DNA of 11,893 nucleotides from Promethearchaeota archaeon. Its GTDB lineage: Archaea; Asgardarchaeota; Lokiarchaeia; Sigyniarchaeales; SOKP01. The position numbers were made by a program, and so were the translations under genes. The stretch spans positions 1-11,893 of the forward strand of contig JABCSY010000117.1 of the NCBI GenBank assembly GCA_018238625.1, in the 5' to 3' direction. Positions 1 through 11,893 of the stretch are shown here, piece after piece. A model generated the notes under the pieces. The model saw only the letters and a list, made by a program, of their open reading frames with translations, ran no database searches and was not told where the DNA came from. Numbering within the stretch: the first letter of the stretch is position 1; every line of letters begins with the position of its first letter.

Positions 1-2
1 AA

Positions 3-824
3 AGCGAAATCGAGACTCTAAAGATGTTAGATGTTAAAGTTGAGTATAACGTAATTATTGGTAAAACTTTAACGATCGATGATTTGAAAGAAATGGGATT
101 TAAAGCCTTTTTTATTGGAGTAGGAGCAGGACTTCCAATATTTATAAAGGTACCGGGATTAAACTTAAACGGCGTCCTAACTGCTAACGAATTCCTCACT
201 CGATCGAATTTAATGAAAGCTTTTAAGTTTCCTGATTACGATACTCCTGTTAAAATTGGAAAAATAGTAGCTGTTTTAGGAGGGGGTAATGTCGCTTTAG
301 ATTCCGCTAGAACTGCCTTACGATTAGGTGCTGAAAAAGTCATCATTGTTTATCGCAGATCCGAAGTAGAAATGCCTGCAAGAAAGGAGGAGTATCATCA
401 CGCTTTAGAAGAAGGCGTTATCTTTCAATTCTTAACAAATCCAGTGAGATTTATTGGAGATGAAAACGACGATCTTAAACAAATGGAAGTTATTCAAATG
501 AAATTAGGGGAACCTGATGAATCTGGACGTAGACGTCCCATTCCAATCGAAAATTCAGAATACATAATCGATATAGATACGATCATTATAGGCATAGGAA
601 CAAGAGCAAATCCAATCATAACTAGATCAATACCGGAATTGAAAATAAACAAATGGGGCTACATCGAAACGGATGAAAAATCTCAAACCAACATTGAAGA
701 GATATTTGCTGGTGGAGATATCGTAACGGGTTCCGCTACTGTTATCTCTGCTATGGGAGCTGGCAAGCGAGCAGCTCACGGAATTGATAAGTATCTTCAA
801 GAAAAATATTTAGATAAAAAATAG
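3..824 (+). CDS. sudA: NADPH-dependent oxidoreductase, SudA/NfnB (GltD-like, homotetrameric glutamate synthase family), 5'-truncated
   Basis: The frame is open from position 3 (SEIETLK-MLDVKVEYNVIIGKT), so the ATG at 24 is internal. Family motifs: FIGVGAGLP, GVLTANEFL, NADPH-binding VAVLGGGNVALDSARTALRLGA, YRRSEVEMPAR, LGEPDESGRRRP, FAD motif IFAGGDIVTGSATVISAMGAGK. The N-terminal Fe-S domain lies outside the window. Confidence 0.9.
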   Translation, partial: SEIETLKMLDVKVEYNVIIGKTLTIDDLKEMGFKAFFIGVGAGLPIFIKVPGLNLNGVLTANEFLTRSNLMKAFKFPDYDTPVKIGKIVAVLGGGNVALDSARTALRLGAEKVIIVYRRSEVEMPARKEEYHHALEEGVIFQFLTNPVRFIGDENDDLKQMEVIQMKLGEPDESGRRRPIPIENSEYIIDIDTIIIGIGTRANPIITRSIPELKINKWGYIETDEKSQTNIEEIFAGGDIVTGSATVISAMGAGKRAAHGIDKYLQEKYLDKK

Positions 825-835
825 ACTTTTTTTTT
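816..835. terminator. Probable bidirectional archaeal oligo-T terminator between convergent genes
   Basis: T9 at 827-835 follows the TAG of the + gene. A6 at 816-821 reads as T6 on the - strand downstream of the convergent gene. Confidence 0.5.
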
Positions 836-842
836 AAATAGT

Positions 843-1706
843 TTAGTTATGCCCTTGGGGGCATATTTTTAAACAATAAGAACAATAATTATTGTTCAAT
901 AAACTTTCCATGCATTTTGAGCGATCTATGTGAGTGAAAATGCCAGAACCCTTTATTTTCTCAATTGGTTCTTCATAAGTAGCTCCACCTAAACAATCCT
1001 TTATGCAAATACCGCAATTCTCGCAAAAATCCTCCATATCGCTAAGATCTACTTTCTTTGTTTCGGGGATATTGGCATCCGTAGTTATCGCACTCCATCT
1101 TTGTCTCGGACCAAACTCGGGACTAATGATTAACCCATTCCGCCCCTTTATCCCTAACCCCGCAGCTACAGCGTGAGCCGTAAACAAGAGTTTTCCTCCA
1201 AAGGGATGATGAGCCTCCGTCTTGTAACCTTTTTCTTGCAGAAACTGCGTTAACTCGATTGTTTTTTCTCCTAAGTCGTAATACACTCTAAAGGCTTCAA
1301 TACTAACATGAACGCTTGGCGCTGTTTCGATCTTATCCCAATCCATTTCCATGCCAAAAATTATCGCGTTCTTTCCTACAATTGGAAGGTTTTTGAAAAT
1401 ATAGTTTTCTAATACGGGTGTATAACCAATAAGAGCAATTCCCTTTTCTTTAGCTAGATTCTCAAACTCTACCCAAAATTCAGGTGTCGTCTCGGTTTTA
1501 TTATTATCGCCATTTTGATATTTCGTTTTGTTCGCCTTTTGAAAACCTTTAAAAGTCCCTGTTAAATACTTGCTATATTCTTTTGCGGTTTCTCGGTCCA
1601 ATTTCTCTTCGGTTGATAATTTCATTGTAAAAAGCTCTTTTGGAACGACAAAGACTAAATCGTTGTTCTCTCCAACAAAAGTAGGCTCAACTTTTTTAGA
1701 TTCCAT
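843..1706 (-). CDS. Reductive dehalogenase-like (RdhA/QueG superfamily) cobalamin-binding protein with two [4Fe-4S] motifs
   Basis: GIALIGYT, NAIIFGMEMD, LQEKGYKT, AVAAGLGIKGRNGLIISPEFGPRQRWSAITTD (RdhA-type AGLGxxGRxGxxIxPEFGPRxR), then CENCGICIKDC and C-x9-CSYCLKICP. No twin-arginine signal. GAGGTA RBS upstream. Confidence 0.8.
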   Translation of the reverse strand: MESKKVEPTFVGENNDLVFVVPKELFTMKLSTEEKLDRETAKEYSKYLTGTFKGFQKANKTKYQNGDNNKTETTPEFWVEFENLAKEKGIALIGYTPVLENYIFKNLPIVGKNAIIFGMEMDWDKIETAPSVHVSIEAFRVYYDLGEKTIELTQFLQEKGYKTEAHHPFGGKLLFTAHAVAAGLGIKGRNGLIISPEFGPRQRWSAITTDANIPETKKVDLSDMEDFCENCGICIKDCLGGATYEEPIEKIKGSGIFTHIDRSKCMESLLNNNYCSYCLKICPQGHN

Positions 1707-1712
1707 AAAAGA

Positions 1713-1718
1713 TACCTC
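1713..1718 (-). promoter_or_regulatory. Shine-Dalgarno site (GAGGTA) of the RdhA-like gene
   Basis: TACCTC on the + strand reads GAGGTA on the - strand, 6 nt before the ATG at 1706. Confidence 0.65.
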
Positions 1719-1789
1719 AATAATTTATAATAACAAAATTTTTACTTTTATTTGTAATATTTAGATTAAATAGAGAGAATAATAATTTT

Positions 1790-4700
1790 ATGATTAACAA
1801 TCCTAAGGCTCTTAAATATAAGTGCCCTTTTTGCAGTAACTCGTTAGAATCCCGATTTTCAAAGTGCTTTAATGTATATTGTCCAGGGCATAAATTCAAC
1901 TTGGGTAATTTAGTCATCTTCAGATTAAATTCTGATTTAAGCATTGGTAGAATTGTAAAAAAAATAGACATCCCAGCTTCCAAGTCGTTAGATGGCGAGG
2001 ATTCTTATTTTATAACCAAATATAAAGTTTTATTTGAAAATAATATAATTAAAATTATTCACCCTCTTGATCTCATACATTACGTCTTTGAGGTTAACGA
2101 AAGAATAATTACTAAGAAAGGAGTTGGAGTAATTAATTCCAAAAACTTCGTAATAAAAGATGGAAATTTATCCTATGAATCTATATTTCCAAATGGGAAA
2201 TTAGCTCAAGTTTACGAATCTGAAATAATTTCAAAGTATGAAACTCCCGTAAAAAGAATAATTTCAAAGCAAAGAGTTGACCCTCCAGAGAACTTCTTAC
2301 TAAAGTACTGGGCTAATCTTTTTTATTCTTATTACACATCTTATCAAATTAAATGTATAACCAATTCTAGACTTTCCCTTATGCCACACCAAATAAATGT
2401 GGCCCATCGATTGTCAGAAGAATACTTTCCAAGAATTATATTAGCAGATGAGGTCGGACTCGGAAAAACTATTGAAGCCGGTATTTATATTAAAGAAATG
2501 ATGGCGAGAAATCTTGCCGAGAGAATTTTAATAATTGTTCCTGCTACTTTAGTAAAACAATGGCAATTTGAAATGCAAAACAAGTTTAACATTGAATTTA
2601 CTATATACGATGGGAAAAAAATCAAAGAATTAAAGAAAATCGGAAATCGTACGGGCACTGAATTGTTTCAAAACCCATTCTATTACGATAATCTAATTAT
2701 TTGTTCTCTACAATTTGCGAAAAATAGAAAATATATAAACTTTCTTTCTCAAATTTCATGGGACATAGTTGTTTTTGACGAAGCCCATCATTTGCGAAGA
2801 TATTTAATCAACGCAGCTACTGGAAATTATAGAGAAACCTTAAATTACGACTTAGCAAGGAATATAAGCCTTTCTACCGAATCATTATTGTTATTATCGG
2901 CAACACCTTTACAACTACACTCGTTTGAATTGTATTCGCTTATAGAATTAATCCAAGGAGAAGCTTTTGACAATTTTTCAGATTTCGAACATTTTAGAAA
3001 AAATATGCCGTTTATAAATTTACTAGTTGCTAACGTTAATAACATTGATAAATTAAATAATTTCGAAGTAAAAAATACTATAAAACTTCTTAAGAACCTA
3101 AAGTACATAAGTAGTAACAAAAATAATGAAGGAATACTAGAACTGTTAAAAAACAATAATTATAAATTAAATTTATTAAAGAAAATTGAAGAGGACCACA
3201 CATTATCAAAGTTTCTAATTAGGAATCGTAAAAAGAATGTATTTTCAGAAGAATTTTTAAACAAACGAGTTGTTAAAACTATTGTTATAAATCCTACGAA
3301 GCAAGAATTAGAAGTTTATGACGAGATTAGACTCTATTTAGCGAAGATTTACAATTCTGCAACAAATAAAGAGAACATAGGAATTGGATTTATTATAACG
3401 ACTTTGCAAAAACTACTTACAAGCTCTAAATACGCGTTTTTAAAAAGCCTAGATAGAAGACTAGAACAGATTGAGCGCTTAAAAAGCATTTCTCTTGAAT
3501 TAGATATATTAAAGAACGAAAACCCGGAATACTATGAATCGGAATTGAAAGATCAATATATCGATTCTGACTTTACTTACAATAACGATAACAACTCGGT
3601 TAAAAAATCAGAAAAAACTTCCTTAGGTTTGCTTAACCAAGAAAAAATAATAAGACAATTTTATAACAATTTAAAAGCATTACCTTACGACTCTAAATCT
3701 GAGAAACTAGTTGAATTGTTAAATAAGATTTATTCTCAAAATTCTAACGAAAAGATATTAGTCTTTACGCAATTTGTAGACACTCTGTTGTATTTAAAAG
3801 ATTTGTTGAACAAACAAAATGAAGGTTACTATATGGAAACTTTTTACGGAGGCTTAAATAAAGTTGAAAAAGATGAAGCTGTAGAGAGATTCCGGGAAAG
3901 CAAGAAATTCTCTATTTTACTTTCTACGGAAATCGGTGGCGAGGGTAGAAATTTTCAATTTGCGCGTGTTTTAATAAATTACGATTTACCATGGAATCCT
4001 ATGAAATTGGAACAACGAATTGGTAGACTTGATAGGATAGGTCAAAAGTCCAAAGAGATTTACATTTATAACTTTTATATGGAAGGAACTGTAGAAACAG
4101 ATATTATGTTCGCGCTCGATAAAAGAATTCACCTATTCGAAGAATCTATAGGGCAGCTAGAACCGATAATAGGTAGAATACAAAAAGATATAAAAAATAT
4201 TATCTTTACTGAAGAAAAGGGCAATAGAAGGAAAAAATTAAACGAGTTCAACAGAAGATTAGACCTTGAAGTAAAAAGGGCAAGAGAATTAGAAATGCAA
4301 CTAGACGATTTACTGATTGACAAAAAATCTTTTCGAATCGACGATTTAATAACTTCTTGGACGACATGTAAAGAAGTAAGGCTTAGTCATAACGAATTGT
4401 TTTTACTAACGAAATATTTCTTTAGCCTCAATCATAATAAGTTTGGTCTTGTAAATGTCTTTAAAGAAGAAGGTATCAAAGCTTCTGAAAAAATAGGTCT
4501 TGAGACAAAAATTACGATAAACGACATTTTACTTAAAAATCCCAGGTATAAATTCTTACAGGAATATGTAGGTACGTTTGATTTGAATCTAGCAAGAGAA
4601 CGAGAAGAGATCGACTTCTTTGCGTTAGGACATCCGTTAATTAACGAAGTGTTAGATTATTGTACATCAGGAGATTTAGAGGGAACATTTACGGTACTAA

Positions 4701-5398
4701 ATTTAACGAAGGATAACTTGCCTGAACATTTAATCAATCTTTTATCTTCTAAAAAAGACCTTTATTTATTCGTATTTAACGTAAAATTTCAAGGTTACAT
4801 ATTAGAAAATCAATTCTCTGCTGTAATAGTAGATAATAATGGGAATGAGATTCCAGATTTAGCAGATATCGTGCTAGATATTAAAAGGTTTCAAGATTAT
4901 TTAGTTAGTGATCTAGATTATCCTTATAAAGCTCAATTAGACCTAAGTTTTCTCGAGCAACTTACTCAAAAAGCTAAAAATCTTGTAAAATGGAAGACTT
5001 CTCAATGGAAAAAAGAGATTAGAGTTTTAAACGCTAAAATATTTGATATTGAGACCTCTAAGAAAGAGAAAATATTTAGTTACAAAAAGAGAGTATTAAG
5101 TTTTAGACAAGAATCTTTAAGACAAAAATTAGGGAAAAAAAAAAGCCAGAGCCCAACCGAAAGACAACTATTAAACATTAAGAATATGGATGATAGAATC
5201 AAAAAGCAAGAGCGTTTAGATAAAATTGAGAATTTGAAGGAAGAGGTACAATTTCTCCGTAAGAATATATCATCTATCGATAAAAAGCTAGACGATCTGG
5301 CCTTTGAATACGAGGATCTCAAAAAAGAGATGGATAAAAGAAATATTGCAAAATATTACACTAATTTAAGCTCATTTGCTATTATTCAAATTAAATAA
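1790..5398 (+). CDS. rapA: Snf2-family ATPase/helicase, RapA/HepA-like, with N-terminal Cys4 zinc ribbon
   Basis: SRLSLMPHQ; motif I RIILADEVGLGKTIEAG; Ia RILIIVPATLVKQW; NPF..NLIICSLQF; motif II WDIVVFDEAHHL; III LLLLSATP; IV EKILVFTQF; V STEIGGEGRNFQFA; VI YDLPWNPMKLEQRIGRLDRIGQ; RapA C-terminal-like GTFDLNLAREREEIDFFALGHPLI. The Snf2 call is secure; true RapA orthology is less certain. Confidence 0.85.
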   Translation: MINNPKALKYKCPFCSNSLESRFSKCFNVYCPGHKFNLGNLVIFRLNSDLSIGRIVKKIDIPASKSLDGEDSYFITKYKVLFENNIIKIIHPLDLIHYVFEVNERIITKKGVGVINSKNFVIKDGNLSYESIFPNGKLAQVYESEIISKYETPVKRIISKQRVDPPENFLLKYWANLFYSYYTSYQIKCITNSRLSLMPHQINVAHRLSEEYFPRIILADEVGLGKTIEAGIYIKEMMARNLAERILIIVPATLVKQWQFEMQNKFNIEFTIYDGKKIKELKKIGNRTGTELFQNPFYYDNLIICSLQFAKNRKYINFLSQISWDIVVFDEAHHLRRYLINAATGNYRETLNYDLARNISLSTESLLLLSATPLQLHSFELYSLIELIQGEAFDNFSDFEHFRKNMPFINLLVANVNNIDKLNNFEVKNTIKLLKNLKYISSNKNNEGILELLKNNNYKLNLLKKIEEDHTLSKFLIRNRKKNVFSEEFLNKRVVKTIVINPTKQELEVYDEIRLYLAKIYNSATNKENIGIGFIITTLQKLLTSSKYAFLKSLDRRLEQIERLKSISLELDILKNENPEYYESELKDQYIDSDFTYNNDNNSVKKSEKTSLGLLNQEKIIRQFYNNLKALPYDSKSEKLVELLNKIYSQNSNEKILVFTQFVDTLLYLKDLLNKQNEGYYMETFYGGLNKVEKDEAVERFRESKKFSILLSTEIGGEGRNFQFARVLINYDLPWNPMKLEQRIGRLDRIGQKSKEIYIYNFYMEGTVETDIMFALDKRIHLFEESIGQLEPIIGRIQKDIKNIIFTEEKGNRRKKLNEFNRRLDLEVKRARELEMQLDDLLIDKKSFRIDDLITSWTTCKEVRLSHNELFLLTKYFFSLNHNKFGLVNVFKEEGIKASEKIGLETKITINDILLKNPRYKFLQEYVGTFDLNLAREREEIDFFALGHPLINEVLDYCTSGDLEGTFTVLNLTKDNLPEHLINLLSSKKDLYLFVFNVKFQGYILENQFSAVIVDNNGNEIPDLADIVLDIKRFQDYLVSDLDYPYKAQLDLSFLEQLTQKAKNLVKWKTSQWKKEIRVLNAKIFDIETSKKEKIFSYKKRVLSFRQESLRQKLGKKKSQSPTERQLLNIKNMDDRIKKQERLDKIENLKEEVQFLRKNISSIDKKLDDLAFEYEDLKKEMDKRNIAKYYTNLSSFAIIQIK

Positions 5399-5548
5399 CT
5401 AGTTTATTCCATTCTTCAATGCTTTTATAAAGCTCTACTAAAAGCAGAAATAATCTTACTTCATACGCGTCATACATGAACTAATCAATTAAAAATATTT
5501 AAATCCTATAATAGTTATGGTTAATATGGTGAAAGAAACAACATTAAA

Positions 5549-6073
5549 TTGGTGATTAAAATAATTAATGAAAATAATATCCAAAAAAATGATGAAATAT
5601 TATTTGCAGAATGGGTTCCAGCGGGAAAATTTATAAAAATTTTAGTGCTATTTGTATGTTTATTAATTTCTTCAAATGGTATTATAATTACCGCTTTCAT
5701 ACCCAAAGAGCTTGCGTTTTTAAGAATAACATTTGGTGTTGGAAGTATTGTTGTAAGTATAATTATCTTTCTTATATATTGGAACTACAGAGGACTAAAA
5801 ATCACCTTAACCAAAAACCAACTTGATGTAGAATATGGAATTTTTAACCATAAAAAAATTCCTATAAAAAAAATAACCAGATGCGAAATAACTAAAGCAA
5901 ATTTTAGAAAATATTGGGGCGTAGGAATTCGATTTGGATTAGATGGTTCATTGGTCTACAACACAGATTTCGGAGAGGCTGTAAAACTAACATTTCAAGA
6001 TGGTAAACCATTCGTTTTCTCTACAAAAAATTCACAGGAAATATGCAATCTAATAAACAAATTATCAAATTAA
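5549..6073 (+). CDS. Membrane protein with two TM helices and a probable bacterial-type PH (bPH) C-terminal domain; start uncertain (TTG 5549 or GTG 5552)
   Basis: Hydrophobic segments ILVLFVCLLISSNGIIITAFI and ITFGVGSIVVSIIIFLIYW, followed by the beta-rich LKITLTKNQLDVEYGIFNHKKIPIKKI...WGVGIR...AVKLTF...FVFST and a terminal helix, typical of bPH-type membrane proteins. Confidence 0.7.
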   Translation: MVIKIINENNIQKNDEILFAEWVPAGKFIKILVLFVCLLISSNGIIITAFIPKELAFLRITFGVGSIVVSIIIFLIYWNYRGLKITLTKNQLDVEYGIFNHKKIPIKKITRCEITKANFRKYWGVGIRFGLDGSLVYNTDFGEAVKLTFQDGKPFVFSTKNSQEICNLINKLSN

Positions 6074-6106
6074 AAAAATTTTCTCCGAAATCATTGGGGA
6101 TTTGAG

Positions 6107-6133
6107 TTTTTAAAAAAAAGAGTATATTTTTTT
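6107..6133. terminator. Probable bidirectional oligo-T terminator region between convergent genes
   Basis: T5 (6107-6111) and T7 (6127-6133) on the + strand, and A8 (6112-6119, T8 on the - strand), in a 61-nt gap between convergent stop codons. Confidence 0.5.
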
Positions 6134-6134
6134 G

Positions 6135-7586
6135 TTATTTTAACTTATTCAGCGCGTCTTTTAGAGTCATTTCAAAATTTTCTAATATAAAATCGGTATC
6201 TTCTTCCGTTACAACTAAAGGTGGCTTGATTTTGATTACATTTCGTCTTCTAAGTTTACCTGTGGCCGTTAGAATTGGCATACTTGGTCCTAAATATAAG
6301 TTATGTTTTGGTGCTAGTAATACCATCTCTTCAGAAAGTTCTGTGAAAGGTTCTCGTGTCTCTCTGTTTTTAACTAATTCTATCCCGATAAATAATCCAG
6401 GACCTCTGATATCTCCAATCTCTTCGTATTCTTCTTGCATTTCAAATAGTCGTTTAGTGATCTTATTACCCATTTTTTCGCAATTTTCGCCATATTTGGC
6501 TTTCTCGATAACTTTAATTGCTGCCAGTGAAGTTGCAAATGATAATGGGTCAGAGCTAAACGTAGTGTGCTCTTCCGAAGGACCAAATCTTTTCTTGATT
6601 TTTGGAGATGCTACTAAAACACCTAAAGGAAACCCGCCTCCGATTCCTTTTGTGAATGTCATCATATCTGGTGAAACATCTATGTTTAATTCCTTTTCGT
6701 ATCGTTCGGTTATTGTAAAATATTTTCCACATCTCCACATACATGTTTGACATTCGTCGTATATTAGGAATACTTTTTCTTCTTCACATACTAACTTCAA
6801 TTTTCGTAAAAATTCGGGTGGTGCGGGTATTTGACCTCCAGCAGCTTGAATTGGTTCAAGCATAATACCTGCAAATCTTTTTGGTGCCATCCCAAGTATA
6901 TAGTTTTCTACTAAATCAAAACATTCTAAATTGCAGCTAGGATCCTTTTTACCGTTTAAACCTCCTTTATAATTCCACAAACATCTATAACAATAAGGAT
7001 AAGGCATTCTGGTGAAGTGCTCGTGTCCAAAGCTAGTGAAACGGTTTACTCCATGCATTGGTTGAGTTGCCGTAGCCATCACTAAAGTGGAGCCGTGATA
7101 ACCGCCCCAAAAAACTCCAAAATGATCAGCTCCTCTTGATGCCATCATTGCTAATTTGATAGCCGCTTCGTTAGCTAAACCGCCCCCTTGATTGTTTAAA
7201 GAAACTCTTCCTCCTTTAAGCTTTCCTGATACTAATTCTGCGATTTTATTTACCAATTTTGCTCTAGCAGGAGTTAATACGTTATATCTAACGTGATTTA
7301 GTCTAATCATTTGTTGATAGGCTGCATAATTAACATCCGGGTGTGCAAATCCAAGAGATAAAGTCCAATTCATGGATGTGGCATCAAGAATCTCTTTTAC
7401 ATTGCCTTCTTTATCCATTACTTTCACCCACGAAGACCCTGGTTCTTTTGCCTCTATAGCAGTTAAAGCTTCATAAAAAGAATTAAGTGCGTGTTTATCA
7501 AACTCAATAAGTTCTTCCTCGTTAATTCCCGATGGAATTCGCTCAATTTCTTCCTTAGTTAAAATTTTAGGTTCAATTTCTTTCAT
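6135..7586 (-). CDS. PLP-dependent class III aminotransferase (GabT/ArgD-like), substrate unknown
   Basis: SLGFAHPDV, GGLANEAAIKLA, FWGGYHGST, MLEPIQAAGG, LIYDECQT, PDMMTFTKGIGGGFPLG (PLP lysine codon at 6648-6650), HTTF, IGDIRGPGLFIGIELV, NVIKIKPPL. Confidence 0.92.
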   Translation of the reverse strand: MKEIEPKILTKEEIERIPSGINEEELIEFDKHALNSFYEALTAIEAKEPGSSWVKVMDKEGNVKEILDATSMNWTLSLGFAHPDVNYAAYQQMIRLNHVRYNVLTPARAKLVNKIAELVSGKLKGGRVSLNNQGGGLANEAAIKLAMMASRGADHFGVFWGGYHGSTLVMATATQPMHGVNRFTSFGHEHFTRMPYPYCYRCLWNYKGGLNGKKDPSCNLECFDLVENYILGMAPKRFAGIMLEPIQAAGGQIPAPPEFLRKLKLVCEEEKVFLIYDECQTCMWRCGKYFTITERYEKELNIDVSPDMMTFTKGIGGGFPLGVLVASPKIKKRFGPSEEHTTFSSDPLSFATSLAAIKVIEKAKYGENCEKMGNKITKRLFEMQEEYEEIGDIRGPGLFIGIELVKNRETREPFTELSEEMVLLAPKHNLYLGPSMPILTATGKLRRRNVIKIKPPLVVTEEDTDFILENFEMTLKDALNKLK

Positions 7587-7710
7587 AATTAATATAAAAA
7601 TAAATTATTTTTTTAAATTAGATTTGAGATCATAGTTTTTAAAAGTAATGCTTTCTCTACTTGGAAAATAATTCAATATGAAATATACTTGACTGAAGAT
7701 ATAAATCAAA

Positions 7711-8976
7711 TCACACTTCAAAAACCCATTCTCCATTTCGCATTATTGGTTCTGTGGTTCCATCTTCTAACACTCCATCTACACTCATCTCTCCTGAGCC
7801 GATCATAAGATCAAGATGGATAGAGCTATTATTGCCTCCAGCAGCCATAAATTCTTCATCAGTAAGTGCTTTACCATTTTTCAACGAATTTCTGTAAGCT
7901 TGGCCTATTGCAATATGATTTGAAGCATTTTCATCAAGTAAAATATTATAAAAAAGCAATCCTGTCTGTGATATAGGAGAACTATGGGGCACTAAAGCTA
8001 CCTCCCCTAATCTTCGAGCTCCTTCATCGATATTAATTAGTTTATCTATAACATCATCACCAACCGTAGCATTTGCCTCAATTATATGCCCCTTAGAAAA
8101 CTTAAAAATACAACCCTCGATAACTTGTCCTTGAATTAAAACTGGTCTAGTAGTTTTAACAACCCCATCAACTTGATCTTTATCTGGGAGCGTAAAAATT
8201 TCTTCTGTAGGTAAGTTTGCTGTAAAATCAATCCCATTCTGTGATGTTACACCTCCACCATCCCAGACATGGTCCTTAGGCAACCCGACTGTAAGATCTG
8301 TTTCTGGAGAAGTTAGTTTTAGTGCTTTATATTGCTTCTGATTTAAATAATTACATCGCTTTTTGAGGTTTTCATTATGATTTTGCCAAGCAGAAATTGG
8401 ATTTTCTTCAGTTATTCGACAAATTTCGAATATGATATCCCACAATTTCTGGACTCGTTCATTCGAAGGAATGTGTGGAAGTATTTTGTCTGCCCAAGCC
8501 TTGTTTGGCGTTGAAATGATTAACCAGTTTGAAGCAAATTGACTAACAAGATCTGAAACAGGTCTGAGATGCTTAATCATGAAGAGTGAAAATTTTAAAA
8601 TCACGCTGAGGTCCACATCTTTCAGTAAATCAGGATTCGGGCTCATAATGCCAAGACTCGCATCTCCTGCTTTAAGATTCTCGAGTCTCGCATCTATTTT
8701 CCATTTTGGATATTCTCTAAGCGATTTTTTAGGACCGTATTGAAATCGAATCAAGCGCATTCGCTCATCTGCCCATACCACATCAACTAATCTTGCTCCC
8801 ATTTGATATGCTTTTTTCGCAATTATTCGTACCAACGGAGCTGTTCCAAAAGATATACCATCACCGGTAATAGAAGGCCCTCCAATAAGTAAACGCTGTT
8901 TAGGTTGGAGATTTAAACCTACCTTTAATATAACTTCTGCATATTTCTCTAAATTTCGTTCAAAGTCGGATGACAT
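7711..8976 (-). CDS. ampS: Aminopeptidase, M29 family (AmpS/AmpT/PepS, aminopeptidase II)
   Basis: LEKYAEVILKVGLNLQ, TDLTVGLP, ANLPTEEIFTLP, GARRLGEVALVP, NILLDENASNHIAIGQAY, NNSSIHLDLMIG, IMRNGEW. The Glu/His/Asp metal ligands and catalytic Tyr appear intact. GGTGG RBS at 8984-8988 on the - strand. Confidence 0.93.
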   Translation of the reverse strand: MSSDFERNLEKYAEVILKVGLNLQPKQRLLIGGPSITGDGISFGTAPLVRIIAKKAYQMGARLVDVVWADERMRLIRFQYGPKKSLREYPKWKIDARLENLKAGDASLGIMSPNPDLLKDVDLSVILKFSLFMIKHLRPVSDLVSQFASNWLIISTPNKAWADKILPHIPSNERVQKLWDIIFEICRITEENPISAWQNHNENLKKRCNYLNQKQYKALKLTSPETDLTVGLPKDHVWDGGGVTSQNGIDFTANLPTEEIFTLPDKDQVDGVVKTTRPVLIQGQVIEGCIFKFSKGHIIEANATVGDDVIDKLINIDEGARRLGEVALVPHSSPISQTGLLFYNILLDENASNHIAIGQAYRNSLKNGKALTDEEFMAAGGNNSSIHLDLMIGSGEMSVDGVLEDGTTEPIMRNGEWVFEV

Positions 8977-9173
8977 TACATTTCCACCAAATCTGTAAAT
9001 ATTTTTTATAGTAGTTGATAATTACGTTAAATTTCTTTATATATGTTTTGCATTGCTATCCAATAAAATGGCTATTGATTCTAAATAATAACTAATGCTA
9101 ATATGAAAAAGATTTAAGATTCTTTTTGAATTTCTAAACATACTCTATTAATATATGATATTAGAAGAATATC

Positions 9174-10394
9174 ATGAAATTATTTTCCTTATTAATCAAA
9201 CCCGCCTCGGCAGATTGTAACCTAAGATGTGAATACTGTTTTTACATAGATCATCTTGAAAATGGAAGCAATAGCCCTCGAATGACTGATGAGACGTTAG
9301 AAATCATGATAAAAACTTATATGAGTACGGATCAGGAGGGACGATATGCTTTCGGATGGCAAGGTGGAGAACCTACTTTAATGGGCCTAGATTTCTTTAA
9401 GAAGGTCGTAGAATTCCAAATAAAATACGCTCCACCGGGTTCTTCAATTAGTAATGGAATTCAAACCAACGCTACTTTAATAACGGAGGAAATGGCTAAG
9501 TTTTTTGGAGAATACAAATTTCTTGTGGGAGTTAGTTTAGATGGACCAGATTATCTTCACGATTACTATAGGAAAACCATTGGTAAGAAGCCGACCCATG
9601 CGCTAGTGAAGCGCGGTATAGAGCGTCTCAAGCAACATGGTGTAGAATTTAATATATTAACATTAATTAACAACCAGACCGTAAAAAAAGCTAAAGAGAT
9701 CTATCGTTACCATTGTGATAATGGCTTTTTTTTCCATCAATATATCCCCTGTGTTGAATTTGATGAGGATGGTAATCTTAAGTCATATTCTATTAATGGA
9801 GAAGATTGGGGTAGATTTCTCTCTGATTTATTCGAGGAATGGATAAAAGAAGATGTTAACCGGGTTTCTATTCGTTTATTCGACTCAATTATGGAATATT
9901 TAGTCTACGGACGCTATAATGTTTGTTATATGGGAAAAAGTTGCGTTCAATATTTTGTTGTTGAATACGACGGTAGCGTATATCCGTGTGACTTTTTTGT
10001 ACGCGATGACCTATTATTAGGAAACGTTAAAGCCGATTCATGGGAAAGTCTTTTATTATCTAAGAAATATCAAAACTTTGGAAATAAAAAAGCAAATTGG
10101 AATAAAAAATGCGATTCATGCCCTTATCTTAAATTATGTCATGGAGATTGCCAAAAATTTCGCTTTGGCGCGCCTAACTTTTCAAAAGAGTTAAGCGTTC
10201 TATGCAAAGGTTGGAAGATGTTTTATTCTCGTACATTACCTCGTTTTAAAAGTGTGGCAGAAAACTTTAAATCTGGGCACCAAATTAACGCTCCCACGCC
10301 CTTTAAAACAAAAAAGATTGGAAGAAACGAGCCGTGTTCATGCGGTAGCGGAAAAAAGTATAAATATTGTTGCGGAAATAGAGGTTTACCTTAG
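9174..10394 (+). CDS. Anaerobic sulfatase maturase (anSME/ChuR/AslB-like radical SAM/SPASM protein) with C-terminal SEC-C motif
   Basis: [19 protein letters not shown] (CxxxCxxC), [30 protein letters not shown]; SPASM cysteines [20 protein letters not shown]-x5-CHGDC, LC; SEC-C tail [20 protein letters not shown]. Confidence 0.92.
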
Positions 10395-10430
10395 TTTATC
10401 TTCCTAATTATTCATTTAGTAATGAATTAC

Positions 10431-10446
10431 AAAAAAATATATATAA
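10431..10446 (+). promoter_or_regulatory. Putative archaeal BRE/TATA promoter of vapBC (leaderless)
   Basis: A-run followed by TATATATAA ending about 20 nt before the ATG at 10467. No SD before that ATG. Confidence 0.45.
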
Positions 10447-10466
10447 TTTATAGATATTATTCTATT

Positions 10467-10691
10467 ATGGTAAATAAAACTATTTCATTACCCCTTGAAA
10501 CATATGATAAGTTACGTAAAGAAAAGCGGAAAGGGGAATCTTTTGCTGATCTAATTAACAGATTGCTAAAAAGAACGAAATCTAAAACAAAGTTGTTGGA
10601 GGATTTAGCTGGAGTTTTCAAAGATGATGATGAATGGGATGGAATCATTGAAGAAATCTACGAAGATAGAAAAAGACCAGCGAGAATTTAA
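10467..10691 (+). CDS. vapB: Archaeal-type VapB antitoxin (DUF217/VAPB_antitox-like); true start probably ATG 10467 rather than 10422
   Basis: MVNKTISLPLETYDKLRKEKRKGESFADLINRLL fits the KTI...Y..L...K..GESFSD.I.RL family pattern, followed by an acidic C-terminus (LAGVFKDDDEWD). It lies directly upstream of a PIN toxin gene. Confidence 0.88.
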   Translation: MVNKTISLPLETYDKLRKEKRKGESFADLINRLLKRTKSKTKLLEDLAGVFKDDDEWDGIIEEIYEDRKRPARI

Positions 10692-10702
10692 GGTGATTGA
10701 AG

Positions 10703-11110
10703 ATGGTTGTATTAGATACGGATGTATTAATTTTTTATCTCAGAGGTAAGAATGAAAGCTATTTGAAGATTAAAAATCTTAAAAAAAAAGAGGAATCTTT
10801 GAATACAACAATATTTAACGTAGCTGAATTATTTAAAGGCTGTTATTCCATGAAAAATGTCGCAAAGGGATTAATAAAGGTGAAATCTGTAGTTGAAGCT
10901 TTAGATGATATCTATTTATTTGATAACAATTCTGCTGATGAATATGCCAAAATATCTTCAGATCTCAAAAATAGAGGGCAACCTATTGGAGTAATGGATG
11001 AATTAATCGCTAGTATATGCATAACACATCAAGAAACATTATATTCAGGAAATATCAAACACTTTGAGCGAATAGAAGATCTTAATATAAAAGATTGGAA
11101 TAAAACTTAG
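10703..11110 (+). CDS. vapC: VapC PIN-domain ribonuclease toxin; start probably ATG 10703
   Basis: VVLDTDVLI, NVAELFKG, GQPIGVMDELIASI, LYSGNIKHFERI carry the PIN acidic residues. AGGTGA RBS at 10691-10696 overlaps the vapB stop and is 6 nt before the ATG. Confidence 0.92.
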   Translation: MVVLDTDVLIFYLRGKNESYLKIKNLKKKEESLNTTIFNVAELFKGCYSMKNVAKGLIKVKSVVEALDDIYLFDNNSADEYAKISSDLKNRGQPIGVMDELIASICITHQETLYSGNIKHFERIEDLNIKDWNKT

Positions 11111-11280
11111 AGATTTTTATGATTTGGTTCTATTACCTTGTTTTAAAAAATAGAGATCCAAAAATAAATTTATTAACCATGGGTATTTATAAGAGTAAGG
11201 TTGATCATATAGGAACTATTGAGATTTATATTCCCCTCCCTAATAAAATTTAGTTTCTAGAAGATGAGATGTGAAATATC

Positions 11281-11892
11281 TTGTATTGTCATTATTGTGG
11301 TAATGAAATCAATAGCTTCCCTTTTAGATATAAATACTGTGGTTATCAATTTTGCCCAATTCACCATTTACCCGAATTACATGAATGTACCAAAGAATTA
11401 ATAATCGAATCATCATTGAAAATAGAAAGCCTTAAGAAAAAGCAGATACCGTTAAGCTTATCCAAGAAAAAAATAAATTTAAAGAATAGGACTATATTGT
11501 TTTTGATGTTTATTTCAATTTTATCCATTCTTGATGATAGCTGCTTAACATTGCGCAATTCTACAAATGCTCTAACAATAAAAACACTCATTTTTGAAGA
11601 TGGGTTTTTCAGGCCAAATACTGTTGTCTTAGACGAAAAAGGTGTTAACTTTAATAATTCTTGTCCCAGAGATCGAGATTTCTATGAGCATTTGGTTATA
11701 GACCAGAAGAGATTTCATATTTTTCTCAATGAAGAAAAATCGAAAATATCTAAACCTAAAGGAAGATTTCCATTATCACCAAGTCATATTTTGGGTATAG
11801 TGAGACATCCCAAAAAGATACTAACAATCTATTCCGGATTAAAATTATATCTTCAGAATAGCTTCTATCAAAGAAAAGAGATGGAAGATTAT
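11281..11892 (+). CDS. AN1-type zinc finger protein with hydrophobic segment, 3'-truncated (absent from the ORF track)
   Basis: 204 sense codons from TTG 11281 to the window end with no stop. It begins MYCHYCGNEINSFPFRYKYCGYQFCPIHHLPELHEC (AN1-like) and later reads KKKINLKNRT-ILFLMFISILSIL. SD-like GATGTGA at 11268-11274, whose in-frame TGA fixes the 5' limit. Confidence 0.78.
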   Translation, partial: MYCHYCGNEINSFPFRYKYCGYQFCPIHHLPELHECTKELIIESSLKIESLKKKQIPLSLSKKKINLKNRTILFLMFISILSILDDSCLTLRNSTNALTIKTLIFEDGFFRPNTVVLDEKGVNFNNSCPRDRDFYEHLVIDQKRFHIFLNEEKSKISKPKGRFPLSPSHILGIVRHPKKILTIYSGLKLYLQNSFYQRKEMEDY

Positions 11893-11893
11893 G

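Follow-up and report, generated by a model that had tools for sequence, protein, structure and literature searches.

A RapA-like Snf2 motor in one order of Lokiarchaeia and its possible link to RNA polymerase

Does an archaeon whose RNA polymerase (RNAP) is of the Pol II-like type carry a motor of the kind that bacteria know as RapA, and on what would such a motor act? The question is raised by an 11,893-nucleotide stretch of DNA (contig JABCSY010000117.1, positions 1 to 11,893; hereafter the window) from the metagenome-assembled genome (MAG) GCA_018238625.1 of a Promethearchaeota archaeon. At positions 1790..5398 it contains a gene that an earlier, sequence-only reading had described as a full-length, RapA-like, RNAP-recycling ATPase standing alone in an archaeal genome. 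We favour, at a probability of roughly 0.4, the interpretation that its product is an active double-stranded DNA translocase of the RapA group, vertically inherited and dispensable, which works in a RapA-like manner with RNAP as its most likely target.

The gene proved to be full length, being open from its ATG for 1202 codons, and all four motifs on which the resemblance to RapA had been based were located. Specifically, the two N-terminal segments FNLGNLVIFRLNSDLSIGRIVK and FEVNERIITKKGVGVI correspond to residues 36-57 and 100-115, TFD..ARE..F..HPLI to residues 929-951, and FAIIQIK to residues 1196-1202, the extreme C-terminus of the protein. The catalytic motifs I, II, III and VI (Walker A DEVGLGKT at 220-227, DEAHH at 330-334, SATP, and QRIGRLDRIGQ at 742-752) are all intact, and an alignment of 83 relatives shows them to be invariant or nearly so. 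Measured against two orthologues that are 94% identical, the ratio of non-synonymous to synonymous substitution rates (dN/dS) was 0.10-0.12, and it ranged from 0.05 to 0.20 over seven segments, none of which evolves fast. The gene, present in one copy in its own genome, is under purifying selection. Its GC content of 0.297 lies at the 16th percentile of the genome's 3.6-kb windows (mean 0.320), and its GC at third codon positions (GC3; 0.268) is the same as that of the neighbouring genes; since both values are in line with genome and neighbours, there is no compositional sign of recent transfer.

The domain map of the protein (Table 1) draws on Pfam matches and on two AlphaFold2 (AF2) models, one of residues 1-1000 (83-row alignment; predicted local distance difference test, pLDDT, 79.3; predicted template modelling score, pTM, 0.67) and one of residues 1-185 (pLDDT 86.5). 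Among the orthologues, those of families f1, f2 and f3 keep the predicted N-terminal zinc ribbon, which the sequence-only reading had not noted, whereas those of f4 are without it; it is also present in the outgroup proteins P0131, P0135 and P0157 and absent from the Chloroflexota relatives. Model confidence is low in part of the insertion between the two motor lobes (pLDDT < 50 at residues 588-602). Judged by its composition, the C-terminal tail is probably a coiled coil; together with its terminal hydrophobic stretch it can be aligned across Lokiarchaeial and bacterial relatives.

Table 1. Features of the RapA-like protein and its gene, followed by neighbouring genes; positions are those of the window.
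Feature	Positions	Strand	Residues	Basis or remark
Snf2 ATPase gene, RapA group	1790..5398	+	1202 aa + stop codon	open from ATG
Four-Cys zinc ribbon, N-terminal	1823..1882	+		CPFC at 12-15, CFNVYC at 26-31
Tudor-like beta-barrel 1	1895..2083	+	~36-98	AF2 strands 41-97
Tudor-like beta-barrel 2	2084..2242	+	~99-151	AF2 strands 105-149
Helical linker, N-terminal domain to motor	2246..2431	+	153-214	AF2 helices 153-159, 166-183
Snf2 lobe 1 (SNF2-rel_dom)	2432..3349	+	215-520	Pfam, 95 bits
Inter-lobe helical insertion	3350..3700	+	521-637	AF2, long helices 504-629
Snf2 lobe 2 (Helicase_C)	3701..4042	+	638-751	Pfam, 90 bits
RapA_C-like C-terminal domain	4157..5059	+	~790-1090	weak Pfam match; fold alignment to residue 999
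Lys/Glu-rich helical tail ending in hydrophobic strand FAIIQIK	5060..5395	+		sequence composition
Pyr_redox_2/CCG oxidoreductase, Fer4	3-824	+		Pfam; truncated by contig start
Fe-S protein, divergent from the Snf2 gene	843-1706	-	287 aa	Pfam
ORF downstream of the Snf2 gene	5549-6073	+	174 aa	sub-threshold Pfam hints of bPH_4, DUF6560
Radical SAM/SPASM protein	9174-10394	+		ends in SEC-C motif (residues 384-402, 30.5 bits)
VapB	10422-10691			Pfam
PIN/VapC	10697-11110			Pfam

RapA led both fold searches with the larger model. Foldseek returned the RapA chain 6bog_A at the top (E = 1.3e-43, 967 columns, TM 0.55), with the best chain other than RapA at 5.9e-21. VIA-align ranked five RapA entries first, four of them at Z 27.2-29.2 over 666-696 aligned residues and the fifth, 4s20_K, at Z 24.5 over 706, and these alignments carry model residues 151/152-998/1000 onto RapA 108/110-822/824. 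Other Snf2 remodellers reached Z ≤ 22.4 over ∼400-450 residues, all within residues 183-851. Because the RapA alignment extends past the motor in both directions, the resemblance appears to take in the preceding linker and the domain that follows the motor. Likewise, residues 1-185 were modelled as two five-stranded barrels, for which RapA 4s20_K was the sole match at Z ≥ 8 among 48,161 representative chains (Z 9.6, root mean square deviation 3.2 Å, 100 residues, model 35-151 onto RapA 2-108). Next, at Z ≤ 7.4, came isolated Tudor, KOW and SH3 domains, which align to barrel 2 (residues 99-151) at Z 6-7.4. In Foldseek, RapA took ranks two and three (E = 3.4e-4) in a list otherwise led by tandem Tudor entries of 53BP1. 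According to the models, the protein has a RapA-like fold and domain order beyond the Snf2 core, so that the wider resemblance put forward in the sequence-only reading holds for the linker and the tandem Tudor-like domain and, as far as about model residue 1000, for the part after the motor.

By sequence as well, the best match of known structure is E. coli RapA (E = 7.7e-72, query residues 150-483 and 605-978; the runner-up, CHD1, scored 2.8e-23), and the alignment to the NCBIfam RapA model begins at query residue 98. E. coli RapA (HepA; PDB 6BOG, 4S20 and 8T0L) has the same order of parts, namely a tandem Tudor-like domain, a linker, a two-lobe motor and a RapA_C-type domain. In contrast, identity to the query is merely 24-29%, E. 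coli RapA is without the N-terminal zinc ribbon, and the query has a longer inter-lobe insertion and C-terminal tail (1202 versus 968 aa). The hosts also differ in their polymerase, that of the query's host being an archaeal, Pol II-like RNAP.

The likeness to RapA_C is weak but recurs among relatives. On the query, Pfam RapA_C (PF12137) matched residues 929-980, which include the TFD..ARE..GHPLI motif, with 20.4 bits, under the cut-off of 26.8. Two orthologues scored 21.9 (L038, where the match spans residues 929-1090) and 29.0 bits (L051, over the cut-off), L037 scored 14.2 bits, and proteins of the bacterial sister group scored 19.4 (L065), 22.1 (L067), 26.2 (L068a) and 42.7 bits (L068b). 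Altogether, the model matched 8 of the 14 scanned proteins from the Lokiarchaeial clade and its bacterial sister group, two of them above the Pfam cut-off, and 24 of 120 among the close homologues listed; it matched none of four canonical DrmD-clade proteins (L055, L056, L063 and L064).

Where does the protein belong among its relatives? A search with residues 1-1000 among 1.84 billion cluster representatives gave 3881 matches at E ≤ 1e-30, in which the clusters of the Lokiarchaeial order were followed by ∼80 clusters of 1000-1130 aa and 34-42% identity. The nearest relatives in species-representative genomes came from Chloroflexota, Dehalococcoidia and Thermomicrobiales MAGs and from one Proteobacteria MAG. 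These bacterial 'HepA / helicase-related' proteins align end to end with the query and have in common with it the Tudor-like pair at the N-terminus, a weak RapA_C match and the terminal helical tail; however, most are without its zinc ribbon. Their contexts vary, and three of them (L065, L066 and L069) lie amid ordinary genes. None of 46 sampled relatives reached any NCBIfam cut-off, the nearer ones having about equal scores for RapA and DrmD and more distant ones leaning to DrmD or PLD-helicase. In a search of plasmid references, the named matches (28-32% identity) were all called 'helicase-related' or 'SNF2-related', which did not help in classifying the protein. Two further arrangements were seen among the relatives: a Thermomicrobiales MAG has two tandem RapA-like SNF2 genes (L068, 9548-16560), whose products of 1245 and 1093 aa belong to separate sub-branches within the sister assemblage, and the 2370-aa protein P0167 is a fused form in which residues 7-888 are RapA-like and the ∼1480 residues after them gave no Pfam domain.

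Trees were built with FastTree (151 and 177 rows) and with IQ-TREE under LG+C20 (44 rows). With FastTree, the clade of the Lokiarchaeial order was monophyletic (99-100% support) and grouped with a mostly bacterial assemblage (81-90%), separate from the canonical DrmD clade (98-99%), which includes the sole Asgard gene above the DrmD cut-off. With IQ-TREE, the Lokiarchaeial clade (99%) was sister to P0131 (94%) inside the bacterial assemblage; E. coli RapA was basal to this assemblage (86%), and the DrmD clade (99%) fell outside. P0131, used as a query against 400 Asgard genomes, retrieved nothing nearer than the Lokiarchaeial orthologues. Clustering with DrmD, which the sequence-only reading had named as its refutation, was thus not seen in any of the three trees. 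In an approximately unbiased (AU) test (iqtree2, LG+G4, fast searches), a forced clade of the Lokiarchaeial proteins with RapA was best, the free search second (ΔlnL 22.6) and a forced clade with DrmD last (ΔlnL 44.5; resampling estimated log-likelihood, RELL, 0.03; p-AU 0.057), these numbers being rough as the free search hit a worse optimum than one constrained tree. A DrmD affinity is disfavoured, although not formally rejected.

The surroundings of the gene were compared in the window and 20 fetched related loci. That the gene stands alone, as had been claimed, was confirmed with Pfam and PADLOC: no methylase, PLD nuclease, DrmA/B-like or Hsp70-like partner was found in the window or the 20 loci. 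In the window itself, none of the nine neighbouring ORFs matched a PADLOC model at E ≤ 1e-10, BREX-cluster genes included, and neither Pfam nor PADLOC revealed a dpd-type neighbour. Instead, the 287-aa Fe-S gene accompanies the SNF2 gene in 7 of the 21 loci, from four f1 genera, and is directly adjacent to it except in L049; in four of these loci (three of g1, one of g12) it adjoins a ∼920-aa Fer4/Pyr_redox_2/CCG oxidoreductase. Besides this pair, aldehyde:ferredoxin oxidoreductase and Ras-family GTPases recur in f1, the f3 and f2 loci share an MFS transporter, and the f4 orthologues are surrounded by an M24 peptidase, an adenylate-kinase-like AAA protein and a PF01877 RNA-binding protein. The setting of the gene is therefore stable, of a housekeeping or metabolic kind, and not that of a defence system. 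In one f4 locus (L052, 5888-12402) the M24 peptidase, NTP_transf_3, SNF2, adenylate-kinase-like AAA and PF01877 genes form a same-strand run in which starts and stops overlap or nearly do so upstream of the SNF2 orthologue.

The phylum also contains DrmD-clade paralogues, and all three that were examined have a DrmMI or type IIG methylase as their immediate neighbour. G249, a genome of the window's own genus, has one of the three and carries a separate orthologue of the RapA-like gene in a housekeeping setting. A single one of 400 phylum genomes (G056) holds a gene above the DrmD cut-off, at 669 bits, and this is a different gene from the orthologues described here; PMC11529989 describes DISARM drmD from a further Asgard lineage. 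The three paralogue clusters look like DISARM-type defence. In each (L178 on G249:C24, L179 on G138:C1, L180 on G056:C3) the DrmD-clade helicase is followed by one or two giant proteins resembling DrmMI or type IIG methylases; L180 also has a DruE/DrmA-like helicase, and L178 an AriA/NsnB-like ATPase upstream.

How widely is the gene distributed, and how has it descended? Among 400 genomes of the phylum, 149 gave a match at E ≤ 1e-20. In the window's family 110 of 134 genomes matched, five of them weakly at paralogue level, which leaves 105 with an orthologue, and in three sister families of the same order all genomes did (1/1, 14/14 and 4/4; 19/19 in all), the alignments covering most of the protein at 38-41% and 33-36% identity. 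Of the 246 genomes outside the order, 19 matched, all weakly (best E from 2.1e-21 to 4.5e-56). By these searches, orthologues are confined to one Lokiarchaeial order, and conservation across the Asgard archaea, for which the sequence-only reading had proposed a survey, was not found. The gene tree recovers the family groupings with strong support (f4, then f2, then f3 with f1), which fits vertical descent within the order. Two genera are without the gene. In G147, which is 100% complete, the Fer4 neighbour is kept (60% identity), a different gene occupies the divergent position of SNF2, and a search with the 400-aa N-terminal part of the query finds no match; the absence from G262, within the window's genus, is due to a contig edge. 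The protein diverges far faster than the RNAP core and at about the rate of the neighbouring Fer4 gene: its identity is 65% to g12, ∼39% to f3 and ∼34% to f4, as compared with 91%, 74% and 70% for residues 1-480 of Rpo1N in the same comparisons.

The host is an archaeon, as had been presumed. Its genome (4.29 Mb in 201 contigs, 97.9% complete, 7.59% estimated contamination) has a full-length archaeal small-subunit (SSU) rRNA on contig C22 (1458.7 bits), and the named close homologues of the protein bear Lokiarchaeota, Promethearchaeota and other Asgard labels. Homologues that are 64-73% identical carry the submitter names of five Asgard 'phyla' (Loki, Thor, Odin, Hod and Hermod); given that orthologues were found in one order, these names are probably inconsistent. 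A contaminant contig or a decaying gene, that is, no working gene of this host, is very improbable: the contamination estimate and a contig of only 11.9 kb would allow for it, but five single-contig genomes of the order (G189, G135, G138, G143 and G279) have orthologues, as do 105 of the family's 134 genomes, and frame, motifs and a dN/dS of ∼0.1 speak against decay.

Four RNA-labelled runs were also examined. In X19, a metatranscriptome, a 1847-nt contig covers window positions 2150-3985, inside the gene, with 95 differences; X24 gave short contigs only, one of which (1493-1630) lies outside the gene, and X22 gave no contig on the window. The fourth run, X20, is probably DNA despite its label. 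The X19 contig hints that a near orthologue is transcribed, short of proof, as RNA libraries can hold DNA and contigs show presence only.

What might the protein do? RapA offers the closest guide. According to PMC8501970, the RapA group includes bacterial and archaeal members; the N-terminal domain of RapA autoinhibits the ATPase until the zinc-binding domain of the β′ subunit wedges it open, the motor lobes present a hydrophobic patch against which the β flap-tip helix packs, and these two RNAP elements are the key contacts of E. coli RapA. By analogy, we infer that the N-terminal domain of the Lokiarchaeial protein would keep the motor off until its target is met, and that the motor would then pull duplex DNA and so strip a firmly attached protein from it. 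A stalled or post-termination RNAP would be the likeliest target of this kind. The zinc ribbon may, speculatively, offer a new docking point, which would lie near the RNA exit and dock region; the ribbon of TFB, for comparison, docks near the same region. In its fullest form, the proposal would be that in Lokiarchaeia a RapA motor of bacterial type, to which a zinc ribbon has been added, pulls Pol II-like RNAP off DNA when the polymerase is stalled or past termination; as a whole, we consider this form unlikely.

The role so proposed, removal of RNAP from DNA, is covered in archaea by Eta and FttA/aCPSF1, which disrupt elongation complexes; PMC9371683 speaks of only two archaeal factors known to take RNAP off DNA. 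By their descriptions, both belong to families unrelated to the present protein, Eta being a non-Snf2 SF2 helicase and FttA a beta-CASP nuclease. When the N-terminal 185 residues were co-folded with residues 1-480 of Rpo1N, the score was 0.00 and the mark 0.32, an outcome that does not bear on binding in either direction. Both functions that the sequence-only reading had suggested, recycling of RNAP and remodelling of chromatin, remain hypothetical.

Several results weigh against the interpretation that we favour. The query scored 342 bits with the NCBIfam RapA equivalog model (NF003426), far from the cut-off of 576, and nearly the same, 336 bits against a cut-off of 610, with the DrmD model (NF038317); DpdE (NF041062) gave 259 bits against 500. 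Because all of these scores lie under their cut-offs, the protein is best placed by sequence as a member of the RapA/DrmD/DpdE superfamily (the 'RapA group') that is an equivalog of none of its named members, RapA included. The Tudor-like domain, evident from the fold, was not recovered by Pfam: Tudor_RapA and Tudor_1_RapA found no match on the query at E ≤ 0.01, nor did the Tudor_RapA models match any of 16 non-RapA proteins at E ≤ 0.05, the E. coli control being recognized.

The contacts with polymerase are a further difficulty. The flap-tip helix is a bacterial element. The RapA residues L216, V217, L220 and L229 align with Q259, F260, Q263 and I272 of the query, such that two of the four flap-tip-binding positions in lobe 1A are polar, and E269 stands where RapA has R226, a salt-bridge residue. 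As the flap-tip-binding residues are only partly kept, the bacterial interface is not conserved. The position of RapA in the trees, moreover, depends on one long-branch sequence: no canonical RapA above the cut-off was present in the five bacterial genomes behind the relatives' loci, and with no further canonical RapA found, the E. coli protein forms a single long branch in all trees. The gene is also dispensable, at least one genus having truly lost it. Finally, the gene has no defence partners and lies outside the DrmD clade, but its nearest relatives beyond the Lokiarchaeia are mostly bacterial, and two members of this sister assemblage have neighbours of another kind: in L067 an Hsp70-like gene follows the SNF2 gene, and in L070, from the Proteobacteria MAG (1848-13421), C5 methylase, Vsr, SNF2, a 1143-aa helicase, MZB/DUF1998 and PLD genes form a DISARM-like operon. 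This operon mixes traits of class 1 (DrmD) and class 2 (C5 methylase) DISARM.

Of the alternatives, the one that survives best is that the protein remodels or repairs nucleoprotein other than RNAP complexes, for instance by sliding or evicting histones or by acting on R-loops or stalled forks, with the tandem Tudor-like domain and zinc ribbon reading DNA or a non-RNAP partner. The class is versatile, since Snf2 proteins remodel many DNA-protein complexes (PMC1616948) and, in archaea, the Snf2 protein SsoRad54 remodels DNA in recombination (PMC2677860). The lack of conservation at the bacterial RNAP-contact residues would agree with such a role, as would the Foldseek result, in which tandem Tudor folds of chromatin readers such as 53BP1 and RapA itself are about equally good matches for the N-terminal domain. 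Nevertheless, the architecture of the whole protein fits RapA and no chromatin remodeller, and its relatives are bacterial. Moreover, a second, more classical Snf2 gene in the same genome is a more obvious candidate for a generic remodeller. On balance, we regard a non-RNAP role of this kind as rather unlikely. The second gene (G000:C42, L002, 466-3414, minus strand) encodes SNF2-rel_dom (248.6 bits) and DUF3670, has a SWIM zinc-finger gene directly downstream, and is 32% identical to the query in lobe 2 only.

Alternatively, the protein could be a domesticated or orphan helicase of the defence type, related to DrmD, BrxH or the SNF2 proteins of SNF2-Hsp70 systems, which has lost its partners and still acts on or senses foreign DNA, perhaps with partners encoded elsewhere. 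Among PADLOC models, DrmD (284 bits) and BrxHI (283 bits) lead on the query, and the near-equal NCBIfam scores, the L070 and L067 contexts and the dispensability in some genera, all given above, point the same way. In contrast, neither the window nor any of the 20 related loci contains a defence partner, the gene is inherited vertically along the families of the order with conserved housekeeping synteny, its GC and GC3 do not set it apart, and dN/dS is uniformly low without a fast segment. Canonical DrmD resembles the query in superfamily, length and HMM (hidden Markov model) score; however, it comes with drmA, drmB, drmC and methylase partners that the query is without. True DrmD-clade paralogues beside DrmMI methylases coexist as separate genes in the same genus, and the tree joining the Lokiarchaeial clade to DrmD fitted worst. 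Overall, we regard a helicase of the defence type as improbable, and prefer a RapA-like translocase, most likely directed at RNAP.

The rest of the window holds ordinary neighbours, among them a class-III aminotransferase, an M29 peptidase and an AN1 zinc-finger protein identified with Pfam. The 174-aa ORF downstream of the SNF2 gene was recovered elsewhere only in L049, at 78% identity. The radical SAM/SPASM protein, with its terminal SEC-C motif, represents an unusual pairing. The VapBC pair (10422-11110) seems to be strain-variable, as a contig from run X20 joins position 10380 to 11151 and has 32 other letters in place of the 770 bases at VapBC.

That the RapA group as a class extends to archaea is known. 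We found no published account of a RapA-like clade in Loki- or other Asgard archaea, of its zinc ribbon or of a functional test, although supplementary tables of papers on Asgard archaea or chromatin evolution may list the family.

For the clearing of stalled and post-termination polymerases in archaeal cells, Asgard cells included, a conserved motor with the shape of RapA in Lokiarchaeia is a concrete candidate. If the protein does act on Pol II-like RNAP, a bacterial recycling motor would be re-targetable across the divide between bacterial and archaeal polymerases. If it does not, the Lokiarchaeial clade would still be a well-defined, stand-alone branch of the RapA/DrmD/DpdE superfamily, and such a branch can help to separate the housekeeping from the defence uses of these motors.

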